Positions 8,042 through 37,980 of a DNA stretch of 64,000 nt are shown here, piece by piece. Source of the DNA: a virus. The DNA lies in the IMG/VR virus record IMGVR_UViG_3300006903_000012, one strand, 5' to 3'. Position numbers and translations under genes: made by a program. The notes beneath the pieces are model-generated. The model made no database searches. It had not been told where the DNA came from and saw nothing but the letters and a program-made list of their open reading frames with translations. Positions within the stretch are counted from its first letter, which is position 1; every line of letters starts with the position of its first letter.

Positions 8042-8955
8042 CAAGTTCCCATCTATTACTAGATGGCTTAGACTATACCTTCAAAGGCCGCGTATTATCA
8101 AGACAAAATAAAAGTCTCGATCTCGGATTTCTCCTCAGTCGTTACGGGGTCAAACTTTTACAAGTCGACTTCCCTCGGTATTACCCTCGTCTTCAGCGGT
8201 CGGGTTTCACCGATATGAGCGGCGTGCCGGGCCATTTCTTATTTTCCGATAAAGGCCGGAAAGCTAATTTTCTGCTTCCTGCTTCCGATCAATTTCTGCA
8301 TCACTTTCTCATCGAAGCTTTTTATCTTATCAGCTACCTGCCCAATATTTTTTAACTCTTCAGCCCAAAGAATCAGAACCGAAAATCCTTGCTTTTTGAT
8401 ATACTCAATACGCTTCACATCATAGCACCGCATTTTTCCATCTTTCCTATGATGGGTATACCCAAAAACATCGATAACAGCTTTAGCGTCCACTCGACAA
8501 AAATCAGGGCAGAATCTGCCAATCATTAGTCGACCATTCCCAACATACTCATACGGCAGATCCATCAATTTTAGAATATCCCGCACTTGCTGTTCGGGTA
8601 ATGATAACGGACGATTCCACAACGAGCTAGAAAGTCTTTCAGCACCATAAGTCGGATCTGTCTTATACAAAATTCTAGACTTCTTCCTTGCCTTCTTGGC
8701 GGCCTTACTTCTAACATCAGTTGTTAAGTGAGCTAGCCCGGTTTTCTCAAAAAGACCCTGCTTCATTCTTATTGAGTGTTCCTTACCCTGTTTAGCTGTT
8801 TTCTTTTTTCCTTCGGGTGTAGCATGATACAACTTCTTTGACTTTGAAATCTTCTTTGCGACTGCTTCACGTTCCTTTGCTGAACGGTTCTTCCAAAGTC
8901 TTTTTGCAGCTATTGAACATTTAATGCCTTTACTGGTCTTTTGCATATAGAATTA
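8042..8955 (-). mobile_element. group I intron (type 2) in the capsid gene, endonuclease ORF in the P1 loop
   Basis: The 5' splice site is GGGGU|UAAUUC at 8956/8955. The ORF starts 11 nt into the intron. The IGS-like GGCCC follows the ORF stop. The P4/P5 block is cttccctcggtatta..ttcaccgatatgagcgg (8169-8222). R is at 8136-8149 and S at 8069-8086. P9 is CCAUCUAGUAAUAGAUGG. Confidence 0.65.
8239..8946 (-). CDS. intron-encoded homing endonuclease, Vsr/PD-(D/E)XK-like (EDxHD-type)
   Basis: 235 aa. The C-terminus LPYEYVGNGRLMIGRFCPDFCRVDAKAVIDVFGYTHHRKDG..KRIEYIKKQGFSVLILW is paralogous to ORFs 6449, 9290 and 21560. Confidence 0.7.
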   Translation of the reverse strand: MQKTSKGIKCSIAAKRLWKNRSAKEREAVAKKISKSKKLYHATPEGKKKTAKQGKEHSIRMKQGLFEKTGLAHLTTDVRSKAAKKARKKSRILYKTDPTYGAERLSSSLWNRPLSLPEQQVRDILKLMDLPYEYVGNGRLMIGRFCPDFCRVDAKAVIDVFGYTHHRKDGKMRCYDVKRIEYIKKQGFSVLILWAEELKNIGQVADKIKSFDEKVMQKLIGSRKQKISFPAFIGK

Positions 8956-9261: not shown

Positions 9262-10270
9262 CATCATTTTCAGTTACCTGAAAGATAGACTATACCTTCA
9301 TCCTCTTTCGAGGAGCTCTGCGTATTACCGTATTGGTTTCTTTTAGTCGTTCCGACTTTTGTATCCTCTTATCAAAAATCAATAATTTAACCGCTAAGGA
9401 TTCCAAATCTTGTAATTCATCTTCATCGATAACTAAAGTCTGATATCCTTGAGATTTTATGTACTCAGTTCTTTTCTCAACTCGATCTCTCAGCTTTTTG
9501 GTCTTCTGATATGCCTTATGCCGAAAGCCACCTAGCTCAATCAAGGCGCGATAATCGTCTCTCTTAAAATCAGGACAATACCGTCCAATCATCAGTTTAC
9601 CATTACCAACAAATTCATAAGGTAATCCCAGTAGCTGTAAAAACGATTCAAGTTGGATCTCAATTCTGGACATCGAGCGCTTATTTAGAATTTTAGAAAC
9701 AGTATCAGCATGAACATCGCAAGATTTGTAATGCTCGTTTATTGATTTCTTAAACTTCTTCCTTCGAACAAGTCCGCCAATTTTCCAAATTTTCTTCTGT
9801 ATCTCAGATAGATACTTCCGATGAGATGCTGTTCTGACAGTTTTTCGTAGCGCTGTAGTTCTTCGTTTTCGTATTTTGGGGTCTGTCCATTCCAATTTTC
9901 TCATCTCACTGCGTCGTTTCTGCTTATCTGGATCAGAGTAATAGATATCTTGTTGTCGCTTTGCTCTTTCTTTTATTTTGCTAGGAGTCAGAATCCGCTT
10001 CTGAGCGACACTCTTCGCTTTATTTACCCTCTTAAGTTCTGACTTAGATATCTTATACTTGTATGCTCGTACTGGCTTTCCTGTTCTTGGACTTGTTCTA
10101 ATTTTATTTTTCCGGCTCAAGGCCAATCCTCCTACTTTACAATACGGTCTCGCCTTTCGGCTCAGTCGTTACGGGGTCACGAAGACTTCCCTCGGTGTTG
10201 TCCCTGTGGGAGTTCACCGATATGAGCAGAGTTGTTTCATGTGTATTACTACACAAGGAGACCTTAGTTG
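9262..10270 (-). mobile_element. group I intron (type 2) in the capsid gene, endonuclease ORF in P8
   Basis: P1 is GAGAU|CAACUAAGGUCUC and P2 is UGUGUAGUAAUACACA. The P4/P5 block spans 10187-10230. R is cagtcgttacgggg (10163-10176) and S is agactataccttcatcc (9287-9303), which contains the ORF stop. P9 is UUUCAGGUAACUGAAA followed by AUGAUG at 9262. Confidence 0.7.
9290..10126 (-). CDS. intron-encoded homing endonuclease, Vsr/PD-(D/E)XK-like (EDxHD-type)
   Basis: 278 aa with a basic repeat-rich N-terminus. The C-terminus is LPYEFVGNGKLMIGRYCPDFKRDDYRALIELGGFRHKAYQ..KRTEYIKSQGYQTLVI. Confidence 0.7.
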   Translation of the reverse strand: MALSRKNKIRTSPRTGKPVRAYKYKISKSELKRVNKAKSVAQKRILTPSKIKERAKRQQDIYYSDPDKQKRRSEMRKLEWTDPKIRKRRTTALRKTVRTASHRKYLSEIQKKIWKIGGLVRRKKFKKSINEHYKSCDVHADTVSKILNKRSMSRIEIQLESFLQLLGLPYEFVGNGKLMIGRYCPDFKRDDYRALIELGGFRHKAYQKTKKLRDRVEKRTEYIKSQGYQTLVIDEDELQDLESLAVKLLIFDKRIQKSERLKETNTVIRRAPRKRMKV

Positions 10271-11316: not shown

Positions 11317-12888
11317 TTAATATCTGGGACCCGACACTGTCGATTGCGCTAATTCAGAAGCGCGAAATTTCTTGATCGGCACCTGATCGCCACTTAACGC
11401 TGGAAATGATAAATCACCAGCTTGTGGAGCTGATTGAGTCGGAGTATCTGGCCGAAGCATTCCCAACGACTTACGCTGGGGACCTTTTCGACTAGATACT
11501 GACTCAACTTCTTTTTCGGTCAAGGCTTTGATTAGCGTTTCTACTTTTGCTTCCAAACCAGCTGTCTGCGACTTGTATCGAGCTTCTACCTGCTCAACCG
11601 CATGTGTTACCGCGGCCTGCACCGTCGCAGTTAAATCTACCTGACTCGGTTCTGTCGTTTGGTTAATAAAATCAACTACTGCTGGCACGAACTCATTCAG
11701 AGACTTCTGCATAAGTTCGCGTTTTTCCAGCCGACTGTAATTACCACTATCTAATGTCTGCAAAAATGAGTCGGACCATTTTTGCAGAAATGCCTCAGCC
11801 GGAGATATGGTTGCGGACTTAACATCGGCATTTGCTTGCGTCCGAACCTTGACATCTGTATCGACTGGCGTTGTTGATTTCTTTTTTGCAGCCTTGACTG
11901 GAGTCGGTGGCTGCATCGCTTGCTTTTTCGCATCATCGGTCGGTTGTTTAGAAAACATTAGCCGACCTTCTTCTGCTTCATCTTCGGGTGTTTCAGCGGC
12001 GTCCACTTCCGGATCTTCCATTGCCTCTTCTTGCTGTTGGTCAATTTGCGGATGTTGATTGATCTGTTCTTCCGGAATAGGGGCTGGATTGCCACCTACT
12101 TTTTGCATCGGTTGGGGCGCTGGATTCATATCAGTTGCCGCTGCTTGACCTTCAGCGGTAATTCCACCGTCTGGAGTTGCAGCTAATGAATGAGCATAAT
12201 CCCGCACAGCACTAACCAAATTAGCAGCATGTGCCAAAAGTTCACCTTTATTTCCCATTCCCGGCGACGCTAGTGCTTTCTGCACTGATTCCAAGGCAAC
12301 TATCGCATCGGCCACTAATTCATCTTCAACATCTGATTTTCTATAAGAAACTTCAGGCGAGGCTTCAACTGACATATCATCCGAATTAGTTTCATCTTCA
12401 GACATCTCAACGTCTTCAGTCCCATCAACTTCAGAATGAGTATGTTGTTTCTTAGCCTTATGTTTCTCAACTTCATCATCTGGTGCTGACTCATGTCCTT
12501 CATCTACATCTTGCTCAGTTTCATCAGTCAACTCATCCGTCGGCTCGTCTTCAGCATCAATGACATCCGGATTCGGCTGCAATTCATCTAAATCTTCACC
12601 ACTATAGTTCTGAGTATCGGCCTGCATCTCTTCTGGCAACACACTCATTGTACCATTAGCTGTTGCTTTACCAACCATCTTGCCACATTCCGGACAATCA
12701 ACATCTTCACTGGAAAACGAAGTCTTGCAGTTCGGGCATTCTCGCATGTGCGACTTTATAACTAATTCTGTTTCCGTATTCGATTTTCCAACTCTCTTTG
12801 ATAAATCTTTCTGAACTAATTTCTGTGCCAGCACCGGATTATTCAAAACGGCCCTAGCGTCGTCTTGCTTTGTTTTAATTTGTCCCAT
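11317..12888 (-). CDS. scaffolding-like protein (very acidic, with a zinc ribbon)
   Basis: 523 aa, located between the protease and capsid genes. It has long D/E-rich tracts, a CPNCKTSF..CPECG ribbon and a coiled C-terminal part. Confidence 0.5.
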   Translation of the reverse strand: MGQIKTKQDDARAVLNNPVLAQKLVQKDLSKRVGKSNTETELVIKSHMRECPNCKTSFSSEDVDCPECGKMVGKATANGTMSVLPEEMQADTQNYSGEDLDELQPNPDVIDAEDEPTDELTDETEQDVDEGHESAPDDEVEKHKAKKQHTHSEVDGTEDVEMSEDETNSDDMSVEASPEVSYRKSDVEDELVADAIVALESVQKALASPGMGNKGELLAHAANLVSAVRDYAHSLAATPDGGITAEGQAAATDMNPAPQPMQKVGGNPAPIPEEQINQHPQIDQQQEEAMEDPEVDAAETPEDEAEEGRLMFSKQPTDDAKKQAMQPPTPVKAAKKKSTTPVDTDVKVRTQANADVKSATISPAEAFLQKWSDSFLQTLDSGNYSRLEKRELMQKSLNEFVPAVVDFINQTTEPSQVDLTATVQAAVTHAVEQVEARYKSQTAGLEAKVETLIKALTEKEVESVSSRKGPQRKSLGMLRPDTPTQSAPQAGDLSFPALSGDQVPIKKFRASELAQSTVSGPRY

Positions 12889-12895
12889 CTAACAC

Positions 12896-15800
12896 CTAAG
12901 AAACTGACACTAGTGTTTCGGCCACAACCGGCACTCTGGTAAACGCAAAATGTTCGATCCAGCCCCTCAGAAAATCACGCTGATTACTGGACTTCTTAAT
13001 TACACCATCTGAATCGGGATAAAATCCCATTGAAATTCTAATACAATCTTCATGCGGAATTTTATTTTGAATGTCTGATTTGACTTCTTGATACAACTGC
13101 CGACCTAATGCTGTCGGAAAAAAGATACCCCGTGCTTTTGGTTGCCGACCGTCTATCCAAATGTCAGTTGCGATCCCAGCGCTCAATCGTTCAGTTCCAC
13201 ATTTAGGACATAGATAATCAGTTAACGATTTGAACTCATAACCGCAGTCACAATCATAGAGAGAATAATGCGCGACACTGGCAAACGGCGGCGGAACTGT
13301 TTTTGATTTGAACCGTCGAATGGCTTCTTCATAAAATGCTTTAGTAACTTTATCGCCTTCAATATCTCTATCGAATTTGGTGGTAGTGGCTTCCCACTCC
13401 ATCATCCCATCATCTTTTATGCGAGCTTTTGTAATTCGCCACTCAGTTCGGAAAACATCAGAACTAAAAGAGATGGGAACTAAAGTTTGTGACTTTTTAA
13501 CTTGTGCGTCTGAAAAATCATCTAAGATTTTATCTGCCAGTTTAGAGTTAAGGGCATAATAATTTTTCAAATGTTTTTTAGCTTCCGAAATACTATCTTT
13601 ATCTGAGCTATCTCGAGATAGATGTGACCAAACATCACCAACAATTGCAGTCCCATAACGATCAACAAGTTTCGAAAGCATCTTATTAGAAGCTACATCT
13701 GAGTTATATCTACGTCTGGCATTATTATTTGTTGATCCTGAAAGAGTTGGCGCAACCTTTTGAAAAGCATTCTGATTTCCGGTGCCCTCTCCAACTCCAA
13801 TAACATGCTCACCAGGCAAAGAATTACTATGACCATGTGTACTTTGGTCATGCTTGCCTGGGAGATGTTTCTGTTCACCACCACTCTTCTCTTCTGCATC
13901 TGCTCGCCAAGCATCTAAACATTCATACTCTTTTGGATTCTTATTCGGTTGGAATCCATCTCGTGCCTTCTCAAACGCATCGGCCGCTTGTGAATATTTA
14001 CCAGCGTGATAAGCATTCCACCCTTGCGCAATCCATTTACCTGAATAGTATTTGTAATATTCTGACCAGATAGCTTTCAAGCAGCTTTGATCGGCCTTGG
14101 AAATAAGCGACTTACCTACCTTATCCAAAAGAACATCTTGATAATCGGCAATTTGTTCGCCCAAATTCTCAATGCCTTGCGACAACCTAGTTCTGGCTGT
14201 GGGATCTTTTGTTGAAGACAGATCTTCTTTTGCTCGAGCACGCTGTTGTTGAGCTAAATCGATTCTAGAATGTAACTCGGAAGTAGATAACTTGTTAAGT
14301 ATCTTTTGGTCTCGCTGTCTTTCATCGGCAGTACGGTTTGATAGAACTTTTCTTGTTGTCGGAACCTTCGCCCCGCCTCCTACCTTCTTCTTCGCCGCTG
14401 CAATGCTAGTATCATTATCTTTGGCATATTGTCGAGCCGCCGCATCGCGCAGTTGAGCAGATGTATGCGCAACTTTCCCACTGGCGCCTTTGATGCCAGC
14501 ATGACTCGACTGGTCGTGTTGTCCAGGGAGATGTTTTTCTTCCAATATATGTCGACTTGCCGCTAAATATGCTTTTAGCGACTTAAAATCTGAACCTTTG
14601 CCACGACCATAAATATCAAGTCCTTTTGAACTATGATGCTCCCACTTGCCAGAATCAGCAATATATATAGAATGTTCCAACTGATTACGTCCGTTACCCG
14701 TAGTGGACTCATATAGATCTACACCTCGTATAGGCAACGGATTATATTTAAATCCGTGTTCACTTAGCATCTTAGTAAATTCAGGTGACCGCGGAGTTCT
14801 GGTTCGACCATGACTGCTTTGGTCATGTTTACCCGGCAAATGCTTCTGCTTACTCTCATGTATCTCATTATACTTCTTGTGAACCTCAGGAATTTTATGA
14901 TCTTCTGAACCATCGTCTGCCAGTTGACCGATCTCCCGCAACTCATCTTGATAAAGAAATCGGTGGTAACCTTTTGGAAGTAGTGACTTTGTTTCTTCAT
15001 CAGTCTCGAATTCAATATCATCCAATGCAGAAGTAGCTAATTCGATTACATTCCGCCAAGCATCCCGTTCAGCTGACGTATAGTTATAAATCTTCCTAGG
15101 TTTATCAAGCTCTCTCGACAAGGCAGAAACCGCGGAATTAATGTCATGCTGTGTCTCTGGAGTAAGGTCTTCGATCTCACTGGACTGTCGTAACTGTCTC
15201 AACAAGTCTCGACCAGCACCTCGTCCGGCCCTGGTTCCCGGTCCGAACTTTTTCAGATCAGACAGATGTGACTGACCATAACCAGCATGACTTTGTTGGT
15301 CATGTTTACCCGGCAAGTGTTTCTCAACTGCCGCCACAAACAAACTCTTCTGTAACAAATAATTCTGTCGCGCTTTTTCGACTTCATTATGCGGTTGATA
15401 CTCATGCCCGCATTTTGAGCATTTATGAGTTCCGCGTCCAATATGTGGATCTTCAACTGTACTACCGCATTTAGGACAAGCGGCAGTTGGGAAATGTTTC
15501 TCAGTCATTGATTTCTTGTATTGCTGATTCGAGAAGATATTATCACTTATAAATCGATCCACTTGTAAATTAGCATCATCAAAATCACCACGATCATAAT
15601 CTACACTTTTCCAATCGAAATTATCTCTGTCTCCATTAGAAACAAAAAACTCTGCTAATACAGTTCTGCCAGAATCGGGCAAAGCCGGTATAGTATCAGC
15701 AACATAATTCAACTTAACATCATTTGACATCTGATTTATCCAAACATCAGCTGCTTGTTTTTTTGATTTCGCACGTCCACTGCGTACTAAGTCTGATGTT

Positions 15801-16216
15801 ATTTGTGACTCAAAACTTTTAACAAGTTCCTTTGCTGCACTTGTCACATCGGCATCAGATGCTTTATATGGATCAGGTCTCTTTTGTCTCATCTTCCCGG
15901 CATGTGTTCCTTGATCGTGCTTGCCGGGAAAGTGCTTTTCCGATAACGATTTCTGATTCTGCTTAGCAACAAATGCTAACAATTCATCAGGATCAATTTC
16001 TATTTCTCCGCCACCGAAATTATGTGCGCCAAGATGCGCTTCTGGAATCGATTTCTCGTGCTTGAAATACTCGACTTCAGCCAGACGCTTTGTGGCCCAG
16101 TCTTTACTAGGTCCGCAACCTAGATTTCTTTTTCCGTCTTCACTAACCACACACCACTGATTGCCTTTTTTCTTAATCCGCTTTTCAACCAACTCGCTGA
16201 TTACAAAGTCGGCCAT
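12896..16216 (-). CDS. large virion polyprotein with C-terminal HK97-type prohead protease domain
   Basis: 1106 aa with five copies of KH(L/F)PG(K/Q)HDQ..H(A)G. The C-terminal 200 or so aa (about 12896-13500) read FDRDIEGDKVTKAFYEEAI..ASVAHYS..RISMGFYP..HFAFTRVPVVAETLV, which resembles S78/U35 prohead proteases, with an inserted CDCG..CPKCG ribbon. Confidence 0.65.
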   Translation of the reverse strand: MADFVISELVEKRIKKKGNQWCVVSEDGKRNLGCGPSKDWATKRLAEVEYFKHEKSIPEAHLGAHNFGGGEIEIDPDELLAFVAKQNQKSLSEKHFPGKHDQGTHAGKMRQKRPDPYKASDADVTSAAKELVKSFESQITSDLVRSGRAKSKKQAADVWINQMSNDVKLNYVADTIPALPDSGRTVLAEFFVSNGDRDNFDWKSVDYDRGDFDDANLQVDRFISDNIFSNQQYKKSMTEKHFPTAACPKCGSTVEDPHIGRGTHKCSKCGHEYQPHNEVEKARQNYLLQKSLFVAAVEKHLPGKHDQQSHAGYGQSHLSDLKKFGPGTRAGRGAGRDLLRQLRQSSEIEDLTPETQHDINSAVSALSRELDKPRKIYNYTSAERDAWRNVIELATSALDDIEFETDEETKSLLPKGYHRFLYQDELREIGQLADDGSEDHKIPEVHKKYNEIHESKQKHLPGKHDQSSHGRTRTPRSPEFTKMLSEHGFKYNPLPIRGVDLYESTTGNGRNQLEHSIYIADSGKWEHHSSKGLDIYGRGKGSDFKSLKAYLAASRHILEEKHLPGQHDQSSHAGIKGASGKVAHTSAQLRDAAARQYAKDNDTSIAAAKKKVGGGAKVPTTRKVLSNRTADERQRDQKILNKLSTSELHSRIDLAQQQRARAKEDLSSTKDPTARTRLSQGIENLGEQIADYQDVLLDKVGKSLISKADQSCLKAIWSEYYKYYSGKWIAQGWNAYHAGKYSQAADAFEKARDGFQPNKNPKEYECLDAWRADAEEKSGGEQKHLPGKHDQSTHGHSNSLPGEHVIGVGEGTGNQNAFQKVAPTLSGSTNNNARRRYNSDVASNKMLSKLVDRYGTAIVGDVWSHLSRDSSDKDSISEAKKHLKNYYALNSKLADKILDDFSDAQVKKSQTLVPISFSSDVFRTEWRITKARIKDDGMMEWEATTTKFDRDIEGDKVTKAFYEEAIRRFKSKTVPPPFASVAHYSLYDCDCGYEFKSLTDYLCPKCGTERLSAGIATDIWIDGRQPKARGIFFPTALGRQLYQEVKSDIQNKIPHEDCIRISMGFYPDSDGVIKKSSNQRDFLRGWIEHFAFTRVPVVAETLVSVS

Positions 16217-19200
16217 GTTTTGTCATCCTCAATTCGTCCTAAAATTTCATAATGTTGCCGACCTACTGGCCGAGCTTGAATTTTTTGCAGCCAATTTTCT
16301 AAGGCTTGATTTGAATTGAACGCCATCACATCTGTTATTTTTGTAACCGGATCGCCAGCGTTATCAACTTCTTCTTTGACACGCACCGTTCGTCCGTCTA
16401 TTTGTAAATTCTTCAGTCGCTTTAATTTCTCAAAATTTCCACGATTGAAGAAATTCAAATCCGGCGGGCGTCCATCATCTGGATCATGTACACCAGAATA
16501 ACCAGTGCCAGTATAGAACGCTTTCTGCTCTAGCTCAGAATATTTAGAATCATATTCATCCATCCACATTCTCAAAGACAGATGATTAATACTATTAACA
16601 TGAACACTTTGATCTGGTAAATCTACATCATCAAAATAAAAATAACCTTTGCCTTTAACAAGTTCTGTTTTCGTCCTGCCCGTAACCTTCAGTGCTCGAT
16701 TAACTTGAGCAACTGTTTTAGGAGTTTTACTGAAATCCATTCCTGATTCTTTTTCCAAATTTCCTGCATGAGTCTTCTGATCGTGTTTGCCAGCTTGGTG
16801 TTTAACTAAAATCTCATACCCATCTTTTTGTAACTGTCGCGCCGCTTGTTTCAACTCACCTTCAACAATAAGACTCTTAACAACTATTGGCAACTCATCA
16901 TCGAAATCATATTTCCCATTATTACTCTTTACGACTGATCGAACTAATGCCGGCATCTCAGGTTTGTAATATTCAAACCCATAATGCAGCACCATGTCTA
17001 AAAAGTCTTCATAGTAACGCTTCAAGTTCTCGTCATTGACCGATTGTAGATCTTCTGTCTTAGCCCGGTCTTTGATAAACTGCTCAAATTCTTTTCGATA
17101 TTGTCCGGGGATTTTTTCAGCATAGCTATCAAATCCCAAAAGTGATTTTTCAGTCTTGGAATTACCAAAAAGATAAAACTCTTTTTCATTTCCCAGATAC
17201 AACCACACCCCAAACACATCCCATGTTACTGCTAATTCTTTCTCAGCCCCCATTGAAGTTAACTGGTTATCTGAAACTGTTACATGGGGTTTATATCCGC
17301 CCGCTTCCCACGTTCGATCTGGTGCCTGCCCATTCGACAACAAACCCGCCACCAAATCATCATGTAGATGTTTTAGGGCGGGTGTGATTTTGACTTCTGC
17401 CACAGACACTTCTTGCAGGGTTATTATAGTGCCGGTCAGGTTGAGTGTCAAGGATTTTTGATCGTATTCAGAACACACTTTTTCGATAGTTTTTCTTATC
17501 GCCAGTGAGTCAAAATACCGATCCATTTTTCCTAAGTAAACTAGTGTGATATGTGGCTCAGACTTTTTGAAATCTAACAGGTTAACTATCTCATTCGGGA
17601 CCGATAGAGCAATCATACAGGTATCATCATGCTCAGCTTTTTCTTCAACTATCTTCGACCCTTTGATTCCCTTAGCTCCAAAAATCTTGGCTCGGCCCGC
17701 TCGGATATCATCTATCGGCAAATCACCTACATCCACCAAAGCCGCTTCAACATACTCATCGGCATCGGTGCCCCATACAATTCCTGCATAAGCATAATTG
17801 CCGCCGAGCACATCTATCTCACTGTCACTAATTACCGGCACCAGACTATATTGTTGTAGATAATGCTGCGCATCGGCTACACTATCAAACCGAGACCGCT
17901 TACCAATTTGATCGGGCTGACCCCATGAATTCATGGGAAGAGATTTTTCTTTAATGGTTGTGCGATATGTTTTGTCGCCTTCTGGATCCTTCCAATCTGA
18001 AACAACCTTAACCTTTGTATTGCCTGGAACACCGAAATACTCAAGTCCACTCAAAGCTGATTTTAGATTCTGATAGGCCCGATCTTCATTATTTCCAGCT
18101 CCCATCTGACCAAAGGCTGAACCGATCCACGGATCACCTCCCTCGGTATCTACTAGAACAAGCCGAACTGCTCGATTAAATGCCGCCTGTGATAACTCGG
18201 CACTATATGCAAGCTCATGGTGACTTGTATCATTCTCAATCTGGCGACCCGCATACCACTTTCCATCTACTTTAATTAATAAAAGATTGAGATGTTTCTT
18301 AATTTCAGACTTTGTCGGGTGCCAGAACTTGTCTCGTTGATAGCTCCCGGGACCAAGCTCTGAGTAATATGACACACTGGGTTTACTAAATTTGTGCTCA
18401 ACCGCAGGTTTACCAATATCTTCTGGCACAGGAGTAGAAGAAAGAGCGCCGGCATGCTTTTTCTGATTATGCTTTCCCGGTTGGTGTTTCTCAACTGCTT
18501 TCTTATTTTCAGCAATAATTCGTTGCGTCTCTTGTTCCAGAATTTCTTTCAGCTTCGCATTCGACTCATCACCGTTCCAATAATGTCCGCCATCTTTCAA
18601 AAAGTCTTCGAATTCTTTTGGGTTCGACTGCAAGTTGCAATGGCAAGTCATGGGATGCGCCGGTGGATGTTGTGTTGTCTCACCGTCGAACACCGTTTCA
18701 TACTCAAAGTCTAAAGGCACAAATCCTTGCTCTTCATTTTGAGTACAAATATCACACACATCGTACCCACGCGTGATCCAACCTTTAGTCTTCAATCCCA
18801 CTGCTGTCATTTGATCTAGAGTCGCCCGAGAATCAGCCCAATTCAATTCCGTATTTACAATTGAACGAATGCGCGACTCACTTAACTTACCAGCATCTTT
18901 CTTAAATTTCAAACCAAAAAGATTCGCCTGGATATAATCGACAATTTCTTCGCTGCTCAAACCATTATCATAACCAGTCAAAATATTTTGCCGAAGGAAA
19001 TATTTTGTTCCACTATCGACATGCTGAACTAATGTGGCTGCTCGTGCATCTAACAGATCAATCACCGACGGATTAGTCAGAATGAACTGAAATTCTTTTG
19101 GTAACGTCAGTCGATCAGCCAAACCCGCTTCAAACATTTGCTGCTGAATATCTTGAACAGCCGTCAGAGAGCCTTCAGAATATGCTTGCCGCAAAATATC

Positions 19201-21270
19201 TAACAACTGATCTTGAATATCAGGCAGACAATACCAATCTTGCTCATTTAGAATATCGTCGAGTTTTTCAGATGCGGTAATTTCCGCTTTTTCTATTAAA
19301 TCAATTTTAGATTTTTCTTCATGGTTAATATTCCATTCCCAGATCTTTCCAGTTTTTGTTTCAGATATGATCTTACCCCCAAGAGCTTCGTTCATTGAAT
19401 TTGGCCGAATATTACCATGCTCAACATAAGCTCTAACAGAGTTAATACCCGACGATGCAAGTAACTTAAATATAGCATTTGCTGTTTCTTTTCCAAATCC
19501 AGAACCAGAACGTGACGAATCTATTCGATTGAAGTAGGCATAATCACGATCATTATTGGGTAACTCTACTGTTGCAGTTACTACTATATCATCTTTAGGA
19601 AGTGCATTTTCTAACCAATTTTCTTTTCTTAACCTATCGTTTATTTTAGCATCAAAGAAGAGCCTGTCGCCGGATTGAGTAACAGTTATGTCTAACCTAT
19701 CTGTGTGAATTTTACTGGGAATATTATCTTTTTTACCATACTCACCAGCATGTGATTCTTGATCGTGCTTGCCGGGGAGGTGTTTTTGTATTTCGTTATC
19801 TAACTCAACCAAACTTTTATACTCTTCAAGCGGCGCAACTAATTCTTCCAAATGCTCAATAGTTAACTGATTACCGACTTGCTTAAAAGACTCTTGCAGT
19901 AATTTGCTAAACTTCTTAACTGTCTCACTTGAGTTTCTTAATTGCTTGCCGTCCGCTAACAAATCTTCCGCCAGCGATTTAGCATATTGTTGCATCTCGC
20001 TGTAAGCACTGTCTATTTGATCGAGAGCTTCAGGTTTGTTAGCATCTTCTTGCAGGCCACCGATCGCTTCAGTATCTTGATCGATAGAATCCAGACTATC
20101 ACTAGGGAAACTATCCATACCTTCAAGCCCCGGAGCCGCTGGTAACCCGCTTGTTTTCACGTCAATAATTTTCCACGCCTCAGCTTGTTTCTGAGCATCA
20201 ATCGGTTTCAAGATCGGTTGATTACCAGTCAAAGTCATTAGCATCGTTGCACGTTTACCAGCCAGATCTGCTTGCACACTCGTCTCGCCGGTCATATCAA
20301 TTTTGAACTTGAACTTGAACCCAGATGCAGTCGACATCAGAATCTTTGTATTAATGAGATCCTCGACTAATTGAGCATAGAAACCAGTGCCCGCTCGCGA
20401 CGATACTTTTGAAGACGCTTCCACACCCGCCAATGTACGATCATGCTCAAAGATTCGCAAATCGCCAATTGACAATCCAAACGCAGCACACACCATTTCA
20501 GCAAAACGTTTGAAATTCTCAATCATATTCACATCAGCCGGCGAAAGAGTTAATGGAATAAATCTCGCCGGCTTTGTGTGATCGTACAACAGTGGCATTT
20601 TCATGGGATCAATGTCATTCCACATTTCGCGGAAACCTGTTGCCCATGCGATTGCTTCTGCTTCAGACATATCCATAACATCCAAAATCCCAGCCATCGG
20701 TGTGTTACCCAATTGCTTGAGATAATAAAGATAGATGCGCGAGAGAGCTTCAATCGATAAAAATGCACTTTCAACTGGCGCTTCTTGAAATACTTTGCGA
20801 GTCAAATCAGTTCGTGGTTGAGTAATCAAACGAATCACATCGCCACGACCAAAATAAACTCGATCTAATCCATTATAGGGATTGATCTGTACAAACGGAA
20901 TGTCGCGATCATAGGTGGGGTATAATGTTTCACCATCAATATGATAGAGACCACCAATGATTCCGTCCATTTCAGGATTCGCCACAACTTCAGCATTTCC
21001 CGCAATGGGGAGAATTAGAGCATCTTGCAGCATGCGCGACAACCATACGTCCCAACCATCACCATCATCTGCATCCGCCAGAACTTTCTCGAGATACATT
21101 TTCATCTCGCCTTGTTCTTCTGGCTTATCACTAACTATTTCCCATTCCAAAGATACAAGTTCGCGCAAGATATGCCGAATACAAAGCTTTGTAATCGGCT
21201 CCGTCGCAACTTGATACTTCCACTGAGCTACCGACAAGCGAGTTGGGTTAGCTAAATAAAGCGGTTGCAA
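16201..21270 (-). CDS. portal protein fused to GNAT-like, MuF/SPP1 gp7-like and 2H phosphoesterase-like domains (main exon)
   Basis: 1689 codons. The N-terminus has a portal-like LSVAQWKYQVATEPITKLCIRHILRELVSLEWEIV. A GNAT-like RSGSGFG..N..MNEALGG lies at about 19330-19700. A MuF-like NTELNW..CDIC..HPMTCHCNL lies at about 18630-19200. 2H motifs PHITLVY (17521-17553) and KPHVTVS (about 17270) are present. There are three His-rich motifs. The track start is TTG with no RBS, consistent with a 3' exon. Confidence 0.75.
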   Translation of the reverse strand: MQPLYLANPTRLSVAQWKYQVATEPITKLCIRHILRELVSLEWEIVSDKPEEQGEMKMYLEKVLADADDGDGWDVWLSRMLQDALILPIAGNAEVVANPEMDGIIGGLYHIDGETLYPTYDRDIPFVQINPYNGLDRVYFGRGDVIRLITQPRTDLTRKVFQEAPVESAFLSIEALSRIYLYYLKQLGNTPMAGILDVMDMSEAEAIAWATGFREMWNDIDPMKMPLLYDHTKPARFIPLTLSPADVNMIENFKRFAEMVCAAFGLSIGDLRIFEHDRTLAGVEASSKVSSRAGTGFYAQLVEDLINTKILMSTASGFKFKFKIDMTGETSVQADLAGKRATMLMTLTGNQPILKPIDAQKQAEAWKIIDVKTSGLPAAPGLEGMDSFPSDSLDSIDQDTEAIGGLQEDANKPEALDQIDSAYSEMQQYAKSLAEDLLADGKQLRNSSETVKKFSKLLQESFKQVGNQLTIEHLEELVAPLEEYKSLVELDNEIQKHLPGKHDQESHAGEYGKKDNIPSKIHTDRLDITVTQSGDRLFFDAKINDRLRKENWLENALPKDDIVVTATVELPNNDRDYAYFNRIDSSRSGSGFGKETANAIFKLLASSGINSVRAYVEHGNIRPNSMNEALGGKIISETKTGKIWEWNINHEEKSKIDLIEKAEITASEKLDDILNEQDWYCLPDIQDQLLDILRQAYSEGSLTAVQDIQQQMFEAGLADRLTLPKEFQFILTNPSVIDLLDARAATLVQHVDSGTKYFLRQNILTGYDNGLSSEEIVDYIQANLFGLKFKKDAGKLSESRIRSIVNTELNWADSRATLDQMTAVGLKTKGWITRGYDVCDICTQNEEQGFVPLDFEYETVFDGETTQHPPAHPMTCHCNLQSNPKEFEDFLKDGGHYWNGDESNAKLKEILEQETQRIIAENKKAVEKHQPGKHNQKKHAGALSSTPVPEDIGKPAVEHKFSKPSVSYYSELGPGSYQRDKFWHPTKSEIKKHLNLLLIKVDGKWYAGRQIENDTSHHELAYSAELSQAAFNRAVRLVLVDTEGGDPWIGSAFGQMGAGNNEDRAYQNLKSALSGLEYFGVPGNTKVKVVSDWKDPEGDKTYRTTIKEKSLPMNSWGQPDQIGKRSRFDSVADAQHYLQQYSLVPVISDSEIDVLGGNYAYAGIVWGTDADEYVEAALVDVGDLPIDDIRAGRAKIFGAKGIKGSKIVEEKAEHDDTCMIALSVPNEIVNLLDFKKSEPHITLVYLGKMDRYFDSLAIRKTIEKVCSEYDQKSLTLNLTGTIITLQEVSVAEVKITPALKHLHDDLVAGLLSNGQAPDRTWEAGGYKPHVTVSDNQLTSMGAEKELAVTWDVFGVWLYLGNEKEFYLFGNSKTEKSLLGFDSYAEKIPGQYRKEFEQFIKDRAKTEDLQSVNDENLKRYYEDFLDMVLHYGFEYYKPEMPALVRSVVKSNNGKYDFDDELPIVVKSLIVEGELKQAARQLQKDGYEILVKHQAGKHDQKTHAGNLEKESGMDFSKTPKTVAQVNRALKVTGRTKTELVKGKGYFYFDDVDLPDQSVHVNSINHLSLRMWMDEYDSKYSELEQKAFYTGTGYSGVHDPDDGRPPDLNFFNRGNFEKLKRLKNLQIDGRTVRVKEEVDNAGDPVTKITDVMAFNSNQALENWLQKIQARPVGRQHYEILGRIEDDKTWPTL

Positions 21271-21542
21271 TTTGTTACAAAGTCTTACAGACCTTTGAGT
21301 AAGTCATTTCTGCTCACTTCTTGCAATTCCTATTTCTTGCAAGTTCAGACTATATCATTATCTTTCTTCAAGATAGTTCCCACATAGTCGTTACACACTT
21401 CCGCAGATGCGGGTTGGCTCGGTATTTGGACTCTCACCATTCACCGAATTCGAGAACTGTTACAACATCCATTACTGGATGAAGCCGCCAAGTTGACGGG
21501 TTAAGTAGGGGGGCGGTTGCTGTATACTCGTCGGCGCAACCG
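21271..21542 (-). mobile_element. ORF-less group I intron (type 1) near the 5' end of the portal gene
   Basis: P1 is AAGU|CG..CGGCUU with a U.G pair. P2 is CAUCCAGUAAUGGAUG. The P4/P5 block is ggctcggtatttggactctcaccattcaccgaattcgag (21417-21455). R is tagtcgttacac (21385-21396) and S is gttcagactatatc (21343-21356). The 3' end is GUAACAAAUUG at 21271. Confidence 0.65.
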
Positions 21543-21563
21543 ACTTCTGTACAATAAGTTCAT
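21543..21563 (-). CDS. portal protein, proposed 21-nt exon 1 (MNLLYRS)
   Basis: The ATG at 21563 overlaps the TGA of the upstream endonuclease gene (AUGA). The exon ends at the U of the P1 U.G pair and joins in phase 0 to CAA CCG CUU (QPLYLANP..). This is an inference only. Confidence 0.35.
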
Positions 21564-22432
21564 CTGCCATCAATATTTCTCCTGAGAAATAATTTCTCAA
21601 CCCGAGCAACTTGCTCTTTTGTGTTCTTCAAAAGTTTTGTATCCCAAATCACAATAACCTTATACCCTGCATCTTTATATGCTTGAATTCTTTTCTTATC
21701 TCTTGGATTATCTTTCGCATGCCAGTAGACACCAAAAAGCTCAACAATTATTTTCTTATTGGTATTTACAAAATCTGGGTTAAACCTATTTACCCAAAAT
21801 GCACCGTTACCCACATATCTAAAACCAAATCGCTTTAGATATCTCATCAGAAGTTTTTCTGGTTTATTTGGACTTCTAGGTTCTAATCGTTTCTCAATAA
21901 CTGCATCTTTCTCACTATCTGACAAACCATCCCAATATTTTCTGAGTGATTTAGAAAGTTTATCTGACCTGAGTTGCTTAGCTTTCCTTGGTGTACGCAA
22001 CCAAGTTTCGGTAACAGATTGCGAAATCTTTTTAGCTATTTCTTGTTCTTCCTCGGCAGTTCGTCTTTTGTGTACTCGCTTAATCGCTTTCGACAAACTT
22101 TTACGAAATTCAGCATCACGCTCAGGAGTAAAGTTTCTTCTGGCTTCCGCTGATTTCCTACCAATTCGTTGTCTTTCTTCTATCGGTACCTTAGCATGTC
22201 TTTTCTTTTGAATCCTTGAAATTCGAGCACAAACTTCGGCAGAGTATTTATTGCCCTTGTTGGGCGATGGTCGACCCAAATTCTGGACAGACAGCAGAAA
22301 CTTAGTCTCATCACTCATCACTCGACCGTTGTGATGATTGATAAATCGTCTTCCAAAATTCGCTCGTTCACCACATCCACATAGACACAACGGTCCTTTT
22401 TTAGATTTAGACTTTTGTTTTCGGCCTGCCAT
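21560..22432 (-). CDS. homing endonuclease, Vsr/PD-(D/E)XK-like (EDxHD-type), apparently free-standing next to the portal intron
   Basis: 290 aa. The N-terminus has CLCGCG..HH and basic repeats. The C-terminus FRYVGNGAFWVNRFNPDFVNTNKKIIVELFGVYWHAKDNPRDKKRIQAYKDAGYKVIVIW is paralogous to the three capsid-intron ORFs. Confidence 0.7.
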   Translation of the reverse strand: MAGRKQKSKSKKGPLCLCGCGERANFGRRFINHHNGRVMSDETKFLLSVQNLGRPSPNKGNKYSAEVCARISRIQKKRHAKVPIEERQRIGRKSAEARRNFTPERDAEFRKSLSKAIKRVHKRRTAEEEQEIAKKISQSVTETWLRTPRKAKQLRSDKLSKSLRKYWDGLSDSEKDAVIEKRLEPRSPNKPEKLLMRYLKRFGFRYVGNGAFWVNRFNPDFVNTNKKIIVELFGVYWHAKDNPRDKKRIQAYKDAGYKVIVIWDTKLLKNTKEQVARVEKLFLRRNIDGR

Positions 22433-22943: not shown

Positions 22944-23927
22944 TTATAAATTAGATTTCTCTTTAATAAAAAATGCCGATGCAGGAGGTGTCGGTTCGTC
23001 CGAATATCCTTCCCAATCATCGGGAGTTTTATCACTTAAAAAATTAGTTAGGAATTCTGCACGTTTTGGATATCGTTCAGAAAAATAATCAGGAAGAGTG
23101 TAAAACAATTCAACTGACGTTGCAAAATCTTCTGACAAATTAGTCTTACTTAGATGTGCAGAATGGATTTGTCTAGCGTTTTTCTTCTCACTATTGATTA
23201 CATTTTTCCAAAGCTTAGATCTGCTAAAACTTAAAGAACCCTTACTGGCACCCATTGCAGCGTCCAAATTATGTGCCAACTCGTGAATCGCTGACCGTTC
23301 ATCGGTATAATTCAAAACTGGTGGATGAGAGTCTTGTTCTTCAAGTGGACGACTCACTACGGAAAATGTCCCAGCAATTCCAGTAACAAACCCTTTCTTT
23401 CTAGAAAAAACTCTCTTCCTATATTTAGAAATTTCATTCTTTGCCCAAGACGGAAATCTTCCTAAAGCCTGCTCATAAACCGCTGCATCGTTCTCGTAAG
23501 TCGCAAAATTTCTAACCATCGAACCAGCATGCGTTTTCTGGTCATGCTGGCCGGGCAAATGCTTTCCAATACTTCCACTTGTCTCTTTCCGGCCCACTAA
23601 CATCTTCAATCGCCCCTTCGGCGTCAATAGCAACGTCCGAGTTGTACCACCTGCACTACCATTACTTGTTTCTAACTGCTCAACTAAACCTTGTCGCACT
23701 AATTCGTGAATCTCATTTTTGTGCTGCATCCAATAAACATCTGAAAGTGCGTGACCTTCAGTTTCTATTTTGTAGAGAATTTCAGATTCGAAATTAGATT
23801 GGCCGAGTTGAGATTCGTCGATATTAGACTTTTCAACAGATGCTCGTCTCTTCGGATCATGCAAAGAATGTATCTCAGTAACTAAATCAAGAACATAGTT
23901 CCCATCGCTATCAGTATAAATTTTCAT
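22944..23927 (-). CDS. virion-associated zincin-like metallopeptidase domain protein
   Basis: 327 aa. Contains the HExxH motif AIHELAHNLD (about 23268-23300) and one His-rich motif, KHLPGQHDQKTHAG (about 23545). Confidence 0.6.
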   Translation of the reverse strand: MKIYTDSDGNYVLDLVTEIHSLHDPKRRASVEKSNIDESQLGQSNFESEILYKIETEGHALSDVYWMQHKNEIHELVRQGLVEQLETSNGSAGGTTRTLLLTPKGRLKMLVGRKETSGSIGKHLPGQHDQKTHAGSMVRNFATYENDAAVYEQALGRFPSWAKNEISKYRKRVFSRKKGFVTGIAGTFSVVSRPLEEQDSHPPVLNYTDERSAIHELAHNLDAAMGASKGSLSFSRSKLWKNVINSEKKNARQIHSAHLSKTNLSEDFATSVELFYTLPDYFSERYPKRAEFLTNFLSDKTPDDWEGYSDEPTPPASAFFIKEKSNL

Positions 23928-26674
23928 TGATTAATAACCAAGTCAGCTACAAGTAACGGAGCCTTAAAACTATCTGTCCGAATAGTTGTACTTCTAACTT
24001 CTACTTTACCATTAATAATCGGTACAATCTCATGCTCATCATTGTATCCAAAATTATTAATTTTATAAGAATATAAAATAGATTCTCTAGGGACATTAAC
24101 TATAAACATTAACTTTCCTTCAGAAAAATCATGTGCTACCTCATAAGTATCTGACCAATGACCGACAGTATCTACATCAGCTAATTTTATACTTCCATTA
24201 GCAATTCTTGTAATTAATTCATCAGGAACATCTAAACCTCTATGAAGCACAACAGAGTTCTCTGGTAATGTCAGTTGTGCTGCAGCCCACATCATATCGA
24301 GACCTGGATCATTTTTTCCGGCTGTCCAAGATTTTACTCTAGATGCTAGCTCGTCGGCACTCCCCTTTTTACCATCATAAAATCTTTCTATACTGACAAA
24401 TGCAGATAGTACTGATCTATTATAGGGAGTGTTTAAAATACGATCTTTATCTGAAAAAGTAATTCCCAAATCCTCAAACCTTTTTCTGTCATCATATACA
24501 TAGTTACCCACTTTATATCCCTGCCCCACAGTATTTCTTACTGCTTTAACTCCGCCAGCCTTTTTCACAATACCAATCATTTTTCTGGCACGTTCCAACG
24601 ATTTGTTTTTAGCAATTCCACTTGGTCGCCCATGTGTTAACTGATTGTGTCTACCGGGTAAATGCTTCTTAATCTCTTCTCGCAACTTCTCTTTAGCAAG
24701 ATAATGCTTAACGACTTCATCAAGTCTAGAATCTTGCTCCAATATCTGATCTGTAGTAAAAGATTCTAACTTGCCATATCCATCATCTAATAATAGCTTT
24801 CCCTTATAACCAGCAGACTGTAAACTGGTAGCTAAACTTAAGACATCGCCTTTAGGCGGCAAATCAGATCGAATATCAAAAAGAGACATTCCGGGCTTAA
24901 ATTTCTCAGTTGAATAAATATAAATACCAGCAGATGATAATGCTATCCGCATGGCTATCATTCGACTACTGTCAGTCTGCCGCAACAAGTTTTTAGCCAG
25001 AACAATATGCTCAACTGAAGACCTGCCGGACGGAGCAAAGACCAACCGATCTTCAGTTGGCAAGTATAAACCGACGACACTGGACGAGTCGTCTTCTTCA
25101 GAATTCTCAACCTCTGACAGAACTTTATATGCCTTTGCTAATTCGTTTTTATTGGACGCTACAATATCATCCCCAGCATGAGATTGTTGATCGTGTAACC
25201 CTGCTAAATGTTTTATTTCCTGCACTTCACGGTACACTCGATCACCCGCATCAATTTGATTACGCAGTTTCGCAATTGTGAAAGCATCACGCGATTGGAG
25301 AGCCATCTTTAGTTTATCTTCCAATGAGCGTCGGCGAGATATCCAAGCCTTATGAGCACCAGAAGATGTGCCATATTTTTCAATTAGAGATTTTTCTCCA
25401 ATTGTCGTAGAATAATCGTCTTCTTCATTATTAATATCTTGAATATATACCTTCATTGATTTTGGTAAACCAAAATACTCAAGACCAGATAAAGCCGATT
25501 TTAAATTACGATACGCATCATCACTTCTAGTACTACCTAAATGATCTGAGAGCGAACTGACTACCAACTTTTCATCTGAACCTTTTACAAGCCTAAGACG
25601 AACAGATTTATCGAACTCATCAGAAGAGAGACCAATATCTGCAGCAAGATCGGCATGCATTGAAATTTTATTTTTAGTTCCTTGTATTGCTGGTTTTGCA
25701 TACCATTTCTTACCAACTTTCAGTAACAATAAGTTTGATCTCCAGAAACTATCATTTTGATAACTATCTTTCAACAAATTAGAGTAATAAATTGTCCCAT
25801 CTTTAGATTTATGTTTCTCAGCCAATGATGTAGCAATACTACTACCATCATTACCACCATGAGTTTTCTGATTATGTTTCCCCGGTTGATGCTTCTCAAA
25901 CACTATCGGATTCTCATTCTCATCAAATCCCAGCGCGATTCTAATTTGCTCAGCTAATTCGGCGGCAGCATCTTTCTTTTTCTTATCTTGGTCGGCACTG
26001 ATTATTTCGACAGGGCTAATAGGTTGGGGATATTCAGCAGCAAAATCGGGCAGATACTTGATACTCAATATCGCATCTTGTAATCTTTTGACTGCCAAAG
26101 ATTTGACCGTCGTCGTAACGACTCGGCCTGAATGCAAATCAATTTTAACAGGAGTCTCGGCAGGTATTCCAATTTGATAAAGTTTATCTAGCGCCCAATA
26201 AACTTTCTTAACTCTCGGCTCATCATCAGCTGGACCAACTATTCCTGTGCCTGAGCGATCTATAGTTATTTGACCTTTCTGATATCTAAACCGAATGCTT
26301 GTATCAAACAAATGCCTAATATCCGCATTAGCAGTTATATCAGCGTGAACAGCATCAGAATCCAGTGTTGCATAAACATTGCCGTTAGGAGTAACAATAG
26401 CTGTTACCTTTTCGTTGTCTATTTCATCATCTTGAAGATCTTTTGTAAAATCTGACCAATCATCTACTCGATAGATATTAAATCGTTTAGATCTACCATA
26501 TTTAGTTGCATCATAAATAAGTTCATTAGAACTCGAAATAATATCTTTGCTACTTCCACCCACTTCACCCTTACGACCACTATGTCCAAAGTTTCCAGAA
26601 CCGACGCCACCTTTAACAACAAGATGCCCAACATCTTGGATAATCATTTGTAATCTTTGTCTAGTGTCAAGCAT
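23924..26674 (-). CDS. polyvalent virion protein with C-terminal ADP-ribosyltransferase domain
   Basis: ATG at 26674 after AGGAG (the track start 26737 is an upstream alternative). The N-terminus has GGVGSGNFGHSGRKGEVGGS. There are three His-rich motifs. The C-terminal R-S-E triad is VVLHRG (about 24250), GHWSDT and NDEHEIVP (24020-24049). Confidence 0.65.
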   Translation of the reverse strand: MLDTRQRLQMIIQDVGHLVVKGGVGSGNFGHSGRKGEVGGSSKDIISSSNELIYDATKYGRSKRFNIYRVDDWSDFTKDLQDDEIDNEKVTAIVTPNGNVYATLDSDAVHADITANADIRHLFDTSIRFRYQKGQITIDRSGTGIVGPADDEPRVKKVYWALDKLYQIGIPAETPVKIDLHSGRVVTTTVKSLAVKRLQDAILSIKYLPDFAAEYPQPISPVEIISADQDKKKKDAAAELAEQIRIALGFDENENPIVFEKHQPGKHNQKTHGGNDGSSIATSLAEKHKSKDGTIYYSNLLKDSYQNDSFWRSNLLLLKVGKKWYAKPAIQGTKNKISMHADLAADIGLSSDEFDKSVRLRLVKGSDEKLVVSSLSDHLGSTRSDDAYRNLKSALSGLEYFGLPKSMKVYIQDINNEEDDYSTTIGEKSLIEKYGTSSGAHKAWISRRRSLEDKLKMALQSRDAFTIAKLRNQIDAGDRVYREVQEIKHLAGLHDQQSHAGDDIVASNKNELAKAYKVLSEVENSEEDDSSSVVGLYLPTEDRLVFAPSGRSSVEHIVLAKNLLRQTDSSRMIAMRIALSSAGIYIYSTEKFKPGMSLFDIRSDLPPKGDVLSLATSLQSAGYKGKLLLDDGYGKLESFTTDQILEQDSRLDEVVKHYLAKEKLREEIKKHLPGRHNQLTHGRPSGIAKNKSLERARKMIGIVKKAGGVKAVRNTVGQGYKVGNYVYDDRKRFEDLGITFSDKDRILNTPYNRSVLSAFVSIERFYDGKKGSADELASRVKSWTAGKNDPGLDMMWAAAQLTLPENSVVLHRGLDVPDELITRIANGSIKLADVDTVGHWSDTYEVAHDFSEGKLMFIVNVPRESILYSYKINNFGYNDEHEIVPIINGKVEVRSTTIRTDSFKAPLLVADLVINQ

Positions 26675-26684
26675 CTTGAAACTC

Positions 26685-26894
26685 CTAATCGTGCACTGCA
26701 CTTTCCAAAAGAATATCCGAACCGGACTCAGTAACATTAAGTGACGAAAAAGACTTGACCGGATTAGTTAACCCATTACCATCACCAATCCACACTACAA
26801 ATGGCTCGCCCGTTTCAGAATTAACTTCAGGCAGATCTTTTACTAACTCTTTCAGTCTTGCAACTGTTAATGGACTATCAAAATTTAAGATCAT
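26685..26894 (-). CDS. hypothetical protein
   Basis: 69-aa ORF with ATG start, coupled to its upstream neighbour. Confidence 0.45.
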   Translation of the reverse strand: MILNFDSPLTVARLKELVKDLPEVNSETGEPFVVWIGDGNGLTNPVKSFSSLNVTESGSDILLESAVHD

Positions 26895-37906: not shown

Positions 37907-37980
37907 AGCACCAAGCGGGACTCGAACCCACAATCTACAAATTAGAAGTTTGTCGATCTATCCAGTTGATCTATTGGTGC
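37907..37980 (-). tRNA. tRNA-Arg (anticodon UCU)
   Basis: The reverse complement folds as a canonical cloverleaf. Acceptor is GCACCAA/UUGGUGC, D arm is GAUC-AACUGGAUA-GAUC, anticodon arm is ACAAA-CUUCUAA-UUUGU and T arm is GUGGG-UUCGAGU-CCCGC. Confidence 0.9.

Follow-up and report, generated by a model that had tools for sequence, protein, structure and literature searches.

What purpose would be served by a phage portal protein that carries, in the same polypeptide, a head-morphogenesis domain and two predicted enzymes? This question is raised by a long open reading frame (ORF) at positions 16201-21270 on the minus strand of a 64,000-nucleotide stretch of viral DNA (hereafter the window), which belongs to the IMG/VR record IMGVR_UViG_3300006903_000012. 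The record that holds the window has 111,877 bp and direct terminal repeats, is rated 100% complete, and represents an uncultured phage of ~112 kb. How the gene is built, which domains it encodes, how its fusion is conserved, and how cassettes are arranged in it led us to reason that the portal gene is probably built as a "polyvalent" virion protein, one that would be packaged, cut, and injected in pieces that act as enzymes, and we give this reading a probability of about 60%.

The frame at 16201-21270 is uninterrupted over 1,689 codons, and to that extent the single ORF of the original prediction is real; however, its TTG at 21270 is not a start codon, and an intron together with a 25-codon first exon had been missed. 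While the N termini of the relatives P0004 to P0008 share the consensus MA..IVEK.A.P.SIQ..P.Y(I/L)TRQPLY, the listed ORF opens abruptly at (L)QPLY. Exon 1 was located at 21496-21570 on the minus strand (ATG and 24 codons, with AGGAG upstream), and its 25 residues, MADELIVQKSVAPTSIQQPPPYLTR, match these N termini across the splice junction. Between the exons lies a group I intron of 228 nt without an ORF (21268-21495, minus strand), which contains stop codons, has its 5′ splice site after U21496, and ends with the terminal G at 21268. Both local and whole-window scans matched Rfam RF00028 at 21326-21505, with 54.7 bits against a gathering score of 50 (E = 1e-12). The junction, ...ACCCGU/CAAC ... 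AAAUUG/CAACCG, obeys the group I rule (a U before the 5′ site and a 3′ terminal G), and the spliced reading YLTR/QPLY is that of the relatives. Since TTG 21270 falls within the last three bases of the intron, it cannot be the start of the gene, and the true start is ATG 21570. Exon 2 (16201-21267, minus strand) supplies 1688 codons and the stop, and the spliced product has 1,713 amino acids (aa) and 192.9 kDa, in place of the 190 kDa estimated originally for what is indeed one fused chain. These data indicated that the portal gene is split by a group I intron, which is predicted to be self-splicing. Catalytic core blocks are common to this intron and the introns of the capsid gene of the same phage, which itself contains several Rfam-scored group I introns. 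A short portal isoform produced by −1 frameshifting was considered separately and rejected: 10 in-frame X-XXY-YYZ heptamers were counted against ~6.6 expected, and none was tellingly placed. Residue numbers below are those of the listed ORF, to which 24 is added for the spliced protein, and all modules of this chain lie on the minus strand.

The portal domain occupies ORF residues 2-400 (20071-21267), in agreement with the portal-like ~400 N-terminal residues predicted originally, and matched phrog_2662 ("portal protein") over aa 15-325 with an E value of 4.3e-23, the portal core being listed as aa 15-335. Pfam PF04860 was matched over 6-300 of its 321 positions (E = 3e-7), but the score of 30.3 bits lies below the cut-off of 39.1 bits, so that the assignment rests on PHROGs and not on a Pfam threshold. 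This is the single recognizable portal of the phage, as only one PF04860 match was found in the whole 111,877-bp record. The gene takes its place in the order of a head module, with TerL upstream (41914-43476) and an acidic, scaffold-like ORF and the capsid gene downstream. Following the portal domain are a conserved PGLEG turn, an acidic low-complexity linker, and a helical connector (19786-20070), and then, at aa ~660-905 (18556-19290), a MuF or SPP1 gp7-type head-morphogenesis domain with the pattern CxxC ... HPPAHPMTCHC. This domain matched phrog_2468 (E = 1.8e-12), and hhalign aligned it over 290 columns with three proteins that pass Pfam PF04233, with a probability of 98.3% and an E value of 2.3e-14; the PF04233 (MuF) profile itself gave no match to this protein. 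The MuF domain ends in HPMTCHCNL (18631-18657), as had been proposed.

Six relatives of 1,092-1,678 aa carry a portal and a long extension in one chain, and in 5/6 of them the fused extension keeps the same backbone order. Five of these relatives (P0003 to P0007) were aligned with the protein (alignment A1); P0004 to P0008, recovered from a large protein collection, are 54-60% identical to it over the matched quarter of the query. The conserved backbone consists of the portal, the acidic linker, MuF, and three further modules. Module X1 (W-G-x-P...SRF...DAQ...ISDS-ID; 17626-17943) occurs in 5/5 aligned relatives, and Pfam, PDB, and protein-atlas searches gave no lead on it; module X2 (YAxKIPGxYRKEF...GGFDYW...LVRSVVKS; 16804-17145) is conserved in the relatives; and the C-terminal module (KAFYTGTGYSGVHDPD...; 16204-16524) is conserved in P0003, P0004, and P0006. 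Accessory modules are inserted into this backbone at fixed seams. Beyond the close relatives, portal-MuF fusions of 738 aa occur in 60-kb viral contigs; an alignment-based search of viral contigs recovered four such distant loci; a locus search with the single protein as query found no match. A comparison of the whole gene with 50,697 cultured-phage records by tblastn and blastn gave zero matches. Relative P0003 (1588 aa) begins at the equivalent of ORF residue 88, so that a contig end or a further intron may interrupt its gene.

The first accessory module is a GNAT acetyltransferase (aa 511-660; 19291-19740), which is absent at that site in 5/5 aligned relatives. An exhaustive search found 68 relatives of the module at E ≤ 1e-3 (best E = 7e-15), and 29/43 aligned ones match Pfam Acetyltransf_1 (PF00583), a family that, like every other Pfam family, was not matched by the module itself at E ≤ 1. 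Its AlphaFold (AF2) model has a predicted local distance difference test (pLDDT) score of 89.7. With this model, Foldseek returned 223 PDB matches at E ≤ 1e-3, and those listed are without exception acetyltransferases or structural-genomics domains that lack annotation; VIA-align gave Z scores of 12-14 to the protein acetyltransferases NAT9, RimI, RimL, and GCN5. A protein-atlas search with the GNAT segment yielded weak GNAT leads only (score 0.79). In the coenzyme A (CoA) loop, S-G-S-G-F-G aligns with the G-K-G-Y-G of the family, with Ser taking the place of Arg/Gln at the first position. The GNAT assignment of the original prediction is therefore upheld by homologs and fold, although the literal R..G.G signature on which it had relied is out of register. 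Transitive homology together with fold supports the GNAT identity, and the module is a predicted enzyme. The same GNAT family also occurs in P0010, a standalone protein of 163 aa that opens with MTYANVIKHLPGKHDQHSHG.

The second predicted enzyme is a 2H phosphoesterase domain (aa 1216-1375; 17146-17625), which sits between X1 and X2 and carries both H-x-T motifs (PHITLVY at 17536-17556 and PHVTVS at 17272-17289). Pfam PF13563 (2_5_RNA_ligase2) was matched with 40.4 bits against a cut-off of 27 (E = 4e-10). The domain is present in P0003, P0006, and P0007 (3/5 aligned relatives) and absent from P0004 and P0005, and both motif histidines are invariant in all four members that have it. When the AF2 model was compared with the PDB by Foldseek, the top ≥40 matches were all 2H enzymes, the best being CPDase, LigT, AKAP18, MHV ns2, and Usb1. 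LigT of E. coli (5ldm), CPDase of Deinococcus (5h7e), and the central domain of AKAP18 have the same fold (Foldseek E = 5e-6 to 1e-4, TM ~0.6), as do the 2′,5′-phosphodiesterases coronavirus ns2 and rotavirus VP3, with their two H-x-T/S motifs; in contrast, the sequence identity is only 12-17%. The phage protein Acb1 (7t26, 7t27) is a weak fold match (rank 42-48, TM 0.37-0.45) and not the nearest relative. When predicted viral structures were compared, 2H domains embedded in 880-1,100-aa head proteins of Gordonia and Microbacterium phages accounted for many of the top matches. Searches of PDB sequences with the GNAT segment, the 2H segment, and a whole-family profile found nothing significant, and a word-index search found no standalone relatives of the 2H segment. 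The original prediction had staked its 2H and GNAT assignments on profile searches; 2H is supported by profile and by fold, and GNAT by transitive homology and by fold. As judged from the model, the 2H domain could act as an RNase, trim 2′,3′-cyclic-phosphate RNA ends, or destroy 2′-5′-linked or cyclic nucleotide signals, and the fold does not decide among these activities; a role against the cyclic-oligonucleotide-based antiphage signaling system (CBASS) may be one option among several.

Two other modules complete the chain. One (17944-18447) is paralogous to aa 289-451 of a 937-aa ORF nearby (BLASTP, 43% identity, E = 1e-35). When the whole cassette, aa 921-1112, was compared with aa 275-451 of that ORF, the identity was again 43%, and the duplicated unit began exactly at a short peptide that we refer to as the label. 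The cassette includes NLKSALSGLEYFGVP at 18025-18069, and a diverged further copy is found at aa 114-212 of the 937-aa ORF (22%, E = 0.002). The paralogy noticed originally is real. As for the name given to the partner, an ADP-ribosyltransferase (ART) protein, searches of the 937-aa ORF with Pfam, PHROGs, and NCBIfam detected no ART domain at the thresholds applied. The other is a small module (16525-16761) that matches phrog_9154 (E = 3.6e-12). At this third seam P0003 has, instead, the label and a zincin module with the motif HEFGH. Before that position and after its 2H domain, P0003 also carries a label followed by a module beginning HVIYHGTAADN.

The label has 14 residues and reads KHxPGxH(D/N)QxxH(A/G). 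Three copies are present in the portal protein: label 1 (KHLPGKHDQESHAG; 19744-19785) precedes the GNAT module, label 2 (KHQPGKHNQKKHAG; 18448-18489) the paralogous module, and label 3 (KHQAGKHDQKTHAG; 16762-16803) the phrog_9154 module, so that each of these inserts begins with KH(L/Q)(P/A)GKH(D/N)QxxHAG. By comparison, the 2H domain has no label of its own. The genome contains 12 copies, all on one strand and in four adjacent head-module ORFs, namely the 937-aa ORF (3), a 327-aa ORF (1), the portal gene (3), and a 1,106-aa ORF (5). From copy to copy, the conserved residues are encoded by different synonymous codons, and this free variation indicates that selection acts on the peptide.

We then determined how far the label extends beyond this phage, using a degenerate DNA pattern. 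More than 118 IMG/VR stretches were listed, where by our own estimate ~1-2 would be expected by chance; the counts given here cover the listed matches, and the total in IMG/VR is at least that number. All listed occurrences (141/141) are in frame within long ORFs, and ORFs sampled from among them have the architectures MuF-HNH-label-ADP-ribosyltransferase, MuF-label-DUF3626, and label-ADP-ribosyltransferase. An iterated MuF profile found a MuF gene in 56/118 listed loci, and the label stood after the MuF domain in 27/33 cases and before it in 6/33. A crude motif count showed the zincin-type HExxH to be ~5-fold enriched in label-bearing ORFs, typically 90-300 residues after the label. When two zincin modules were searched by phmmer against the label-bearing loci, no matches were found. 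A tblastn search with a 35-aa label segment gave chance-level matches only, and one with a label-bearing phrog_2859 protein gave MuF-type head proteins, with no well-studied phage informative on the role of the label. No description of the label was found in the searchable literature, including two papers on MuF and polymorphic toxins, and the peptide was not found in the linker and cleavage passages of PMC5512222.

Three neighboring ORFs share the label with the portal gene. The 937-aa partner, a putative polyvalent protein (23924-26737, minus strand), contains the paralogous module twice, in addition to its three labels; the 1,106-aa partner, of the same putative kind (12896-16216, minus strand), has five labels and shares its first 16 nt, ATG included, with the end of the portal gene. 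The third, the 327-aa ORF (22944-23927, minus strand), is a candidate processing protease. It lies two genes upstream of the portal gene, matches Pfam Peptidase_M90 above the gathering score (E = 5e-7), and carries the label at aa 122-135, followed by the zincin motif IHELAHNLD. An Asp stands three residues past its HExxH, which matches the phage-type variant of polyvalent metallopeptidases described in PMC5512222. Prohead proteases of the S78, S77, and ClpP types were not matched anywhere in the genome.

On these grounds we propose the following sequence of events, in which a portal with covalently attached MuF and a string of cargo is suggested by the facts that SPP1 gp7 binds the portal (PMC5576092) and that polyvalent proteins have been proposed to be packaged, processed, and injected (PMC5512222). 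The portal C terminus would face the head interior, and the 1,289-aa extension would consequently be built into the procapsid at the portal vertex, in up to 12 copies that would amount to ~1.75 MDa. The covalent fusion would replace the noncovalent portal-MuF contact of SPP1 gp6/gp7. The neighboring label-bearing zincin metallopeptidase would then cut the extension, the labels or their immediate surroundings being the most plausible sites, to give pieces of ~58, 49, 63, and 23 kDa. The freed pieces would exit together with the DNA and be active as soon as infection begins, when the 2H domain would hydrolyze 2′,3′-cyclic-phosphate RNA ends, 2′-5′-linked nucleotides, or cyclic nucleotide signals and the GNAT would acetylate a host protein.

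Several observations weigh against this proposal. Packaging, cleavage, and injection are put forward by analogy with published systems. P0004 and P0007 are without any label and nevertheless keep the portal, MuF, X1, and X2 in one chain, and it follows that separation of the backbone from the portal cannot be due to the label; the backbone may stay attached to the portal. As no label immediately precedes the 2H domain, it would be released only within the 63-kDa piece; moreover, its model was built from four sequences only (pLDDT 73.5), and the substrates of 2H and GNAT cannot be read from the folds. Finally, the link between the label and a zincin protease is one of association only, and the N-terminal position of the label in many standalone proteins fits docking or targeting at least as well as cleavage.

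This last point leads to a credible alternative, to which we give clearly less than an even chance: the label would be a docking or capsid-targeting peptide that binds MuF, the portal, or the interior of the shell and recruits its carriers, and in the fusion it would merely be carried along with the shuffled cassettes. In T4, the internal proteins bear a short capsid-targeting sequence at the N terminus, which is removed by cleavage once they have been packaged. The first label is ≤50 aa from the earliest start in 40/103 complete ORFs among the listed loci and is almost never in the last fifth; the three neighbors of the portal gene, which have neither portal nor MuF, carry 1, 3, and 5 labels; and units of a label and a domain exist as small standalone proteins, L019 and P0010, the latter being a free label and GNAT cassette. 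T4 Alt, according to PMC5512222, is a published case of an enzyme that is packaged in the head and injected. However, a targeting signal is superfluous in a module that is already part of the portal chain, and still the three labels of this chain are conserved like those in free proteins, and the enrichment of zincin motifs after labels fits processing. Docking and cleavage are, in addition, not mutually exclusive. Both are allowed for in a broader proposal, which we make tentatively and regard as rather doubtful, that the label is a general, undescribed "cargo label" of MuF-type heads, by which any enzyme cassette bearing it, be it a free protein or fused to the portal, would be recognized, serving for loading into the procapsid, for excision by a label-specific zincin, or for both.

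A second alternative, which we consider improbable, is that the chain stays unprocessed and that twelve 1,289-aa extensions form a permanent inner core at the portal vertex, organizing the DNA or plugging the channel; the enzymes would then not be injected and would act within the head or in the course of assembly or be relics. The label-free backbone that is contiguous with the portal in P0004 and P0007 is in line with such a core, as is the failure to find a canonical prohead protease. Yet the 2H motifs are kept in 4/4 carriers and the glycine-rich CoA loop of the GNAT is intact, with no obvious substrate for either inside the head; the accessory modules are quickly swapped between relatives, which is the pattern of conflict effectors and not of a scaffold; and a zincin protease with the same label is encoded next door. 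That the long ORF is an artefact of chimeric assembly, or of a sequencing frameshift joining separate genes, as the original prediction had itself considered, is hardly credible, since the frame runs through all its codons without a stop, an identical protein is encoded on a second contig of 111,727 bp, and the portal with its long extension recurs in the six relatives, five of which share the backbone order, while nothing was found in favor of an artefact and the sole irregularity, the truncated N terminus, is explained by the intron.

The preferred reading, a portal gene built as a polyvalent virion protein, has several published counterparts. In the paper on polyvalent proteins by Iyer, Burroughs, Anand, de Souza, and Aravind (2017, J Bacteriol; PMC5512222), 2H domains fused to MuF or portal are described together with GNATs, ARTs, and zincin metallopeptidases, and the proteins are proposed to be packaged, (auto)proteolytically released, and injected. 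Those proteins, as characterized there, have many effector-type domains per chain and are encoded beside the portal-terminase head module, and here we found GNAT, 2H, MuF, and portal in one chain encoded inside the head module. In contrast, none of the Pfam "large polyvalent protein-associated" domains of that paper was matched here, and this small clade alone has X1, X2, and the C-terminal module. Portal-MuF fusions in a single gene have been reported for cultured Microbacterium phages of clusters EA3/EA5/EA8 and EB (PMC7302621); these contain roughly those two domains only, whereas the protein described here adds ~800 residues, with two enzymes and four modules. The phrog_2662 profile (717 positions) behaves as expected of a portal-MuF fusion family, as its first part matches this portal and its last third matches MuF-bearing proteins. 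Linkage to the portal, which the original prediction had called unusual, is thus uncommon but already published (PMC5512222, in its sections 19-20; PMC7302621).

SPP1 gp7 (MuF) is a minor head protein that binds the portal gp6 (Jamet et al. 2017, PMC5576092). Together with the MuF polymorphic toxins, which have been described mainly in temperate phages (PMC5576092), it shares with the present protein a MuF domain with a Cys-rich C-terminal motif beside the portal and variable C-terminal effectors after MuF. Unlike in SPP1, MuF is covalently joined here, which implies up to twelve copies. We concluded that the protein is an unusually long further case of a published fusion class and that the label peptide is the part that could be new.

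Several further features of the locus were recorded. A free-standing gene of 290 aa that resembles homing endonucleases (21560-22432, minus strand) has an 11-nt overlap between its end and the start of the portal gene at the ATG, and the distance from it to the intron downstream is 75 nt. It matches Pfam DUF559 (E = 4e-8), Vsr (3e-5), and NUMOD3 (1e-3), as well as a PHROG homing endonuclease. The layout, an intron without an ORF and a free-standing endonuclease-like gene, is that of collaborative homing as described for F-CphI and the psbA intron of cyanophage S-PM2 (PMC6083498, PMC3984707); it differs from those pairs in that the nuclease is of the NUMOD3 and Vsr/DUF559 type, and the two elements here form a putative pair. 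Two more DUF559-type nuclease ORFs of the same family (8239-8946 and 9290-10126, both minus strand) were seen within the region of the capsid gene, which is rich in introns. The capsid gene is directly preceded by a very acidic, low-complexity ORF of 523 aa with an N-terminal zinc ribbon (11317-12888, minus strand), which is likely the scaffolding protein. A tRNA gene was detected at 37907-37980 on the minus strand (Rfam, 65.2 bits), in the group of small ORFs that separates the terminase from the head module.

As the class to which this protein belongs has already been described, the value of the locus lies in the corrected gene model with its intron, in a clear case on which to ask whether portal-fused cargo is cleaved, and in the label peptide. 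Enzymes inside the head enter the cell ahead of all phage gene expression and are well placed to disarm host defenses, and here two candidate effectors, a LigT-like 2H phosphoesterase and a protein-acetyltransferase-like GNAT, are tethered to the portal. The relatives provide a natural series, in which the same backbone carries different cassettes. If it is functional, the label would let virion cargo be predicted from sequence. If the cargo-label proposal is true, injected enzymes directed against the host could be exchanged among phages like plug-in units, for which the portal fusion would serve as a twelve-fold loading rack.

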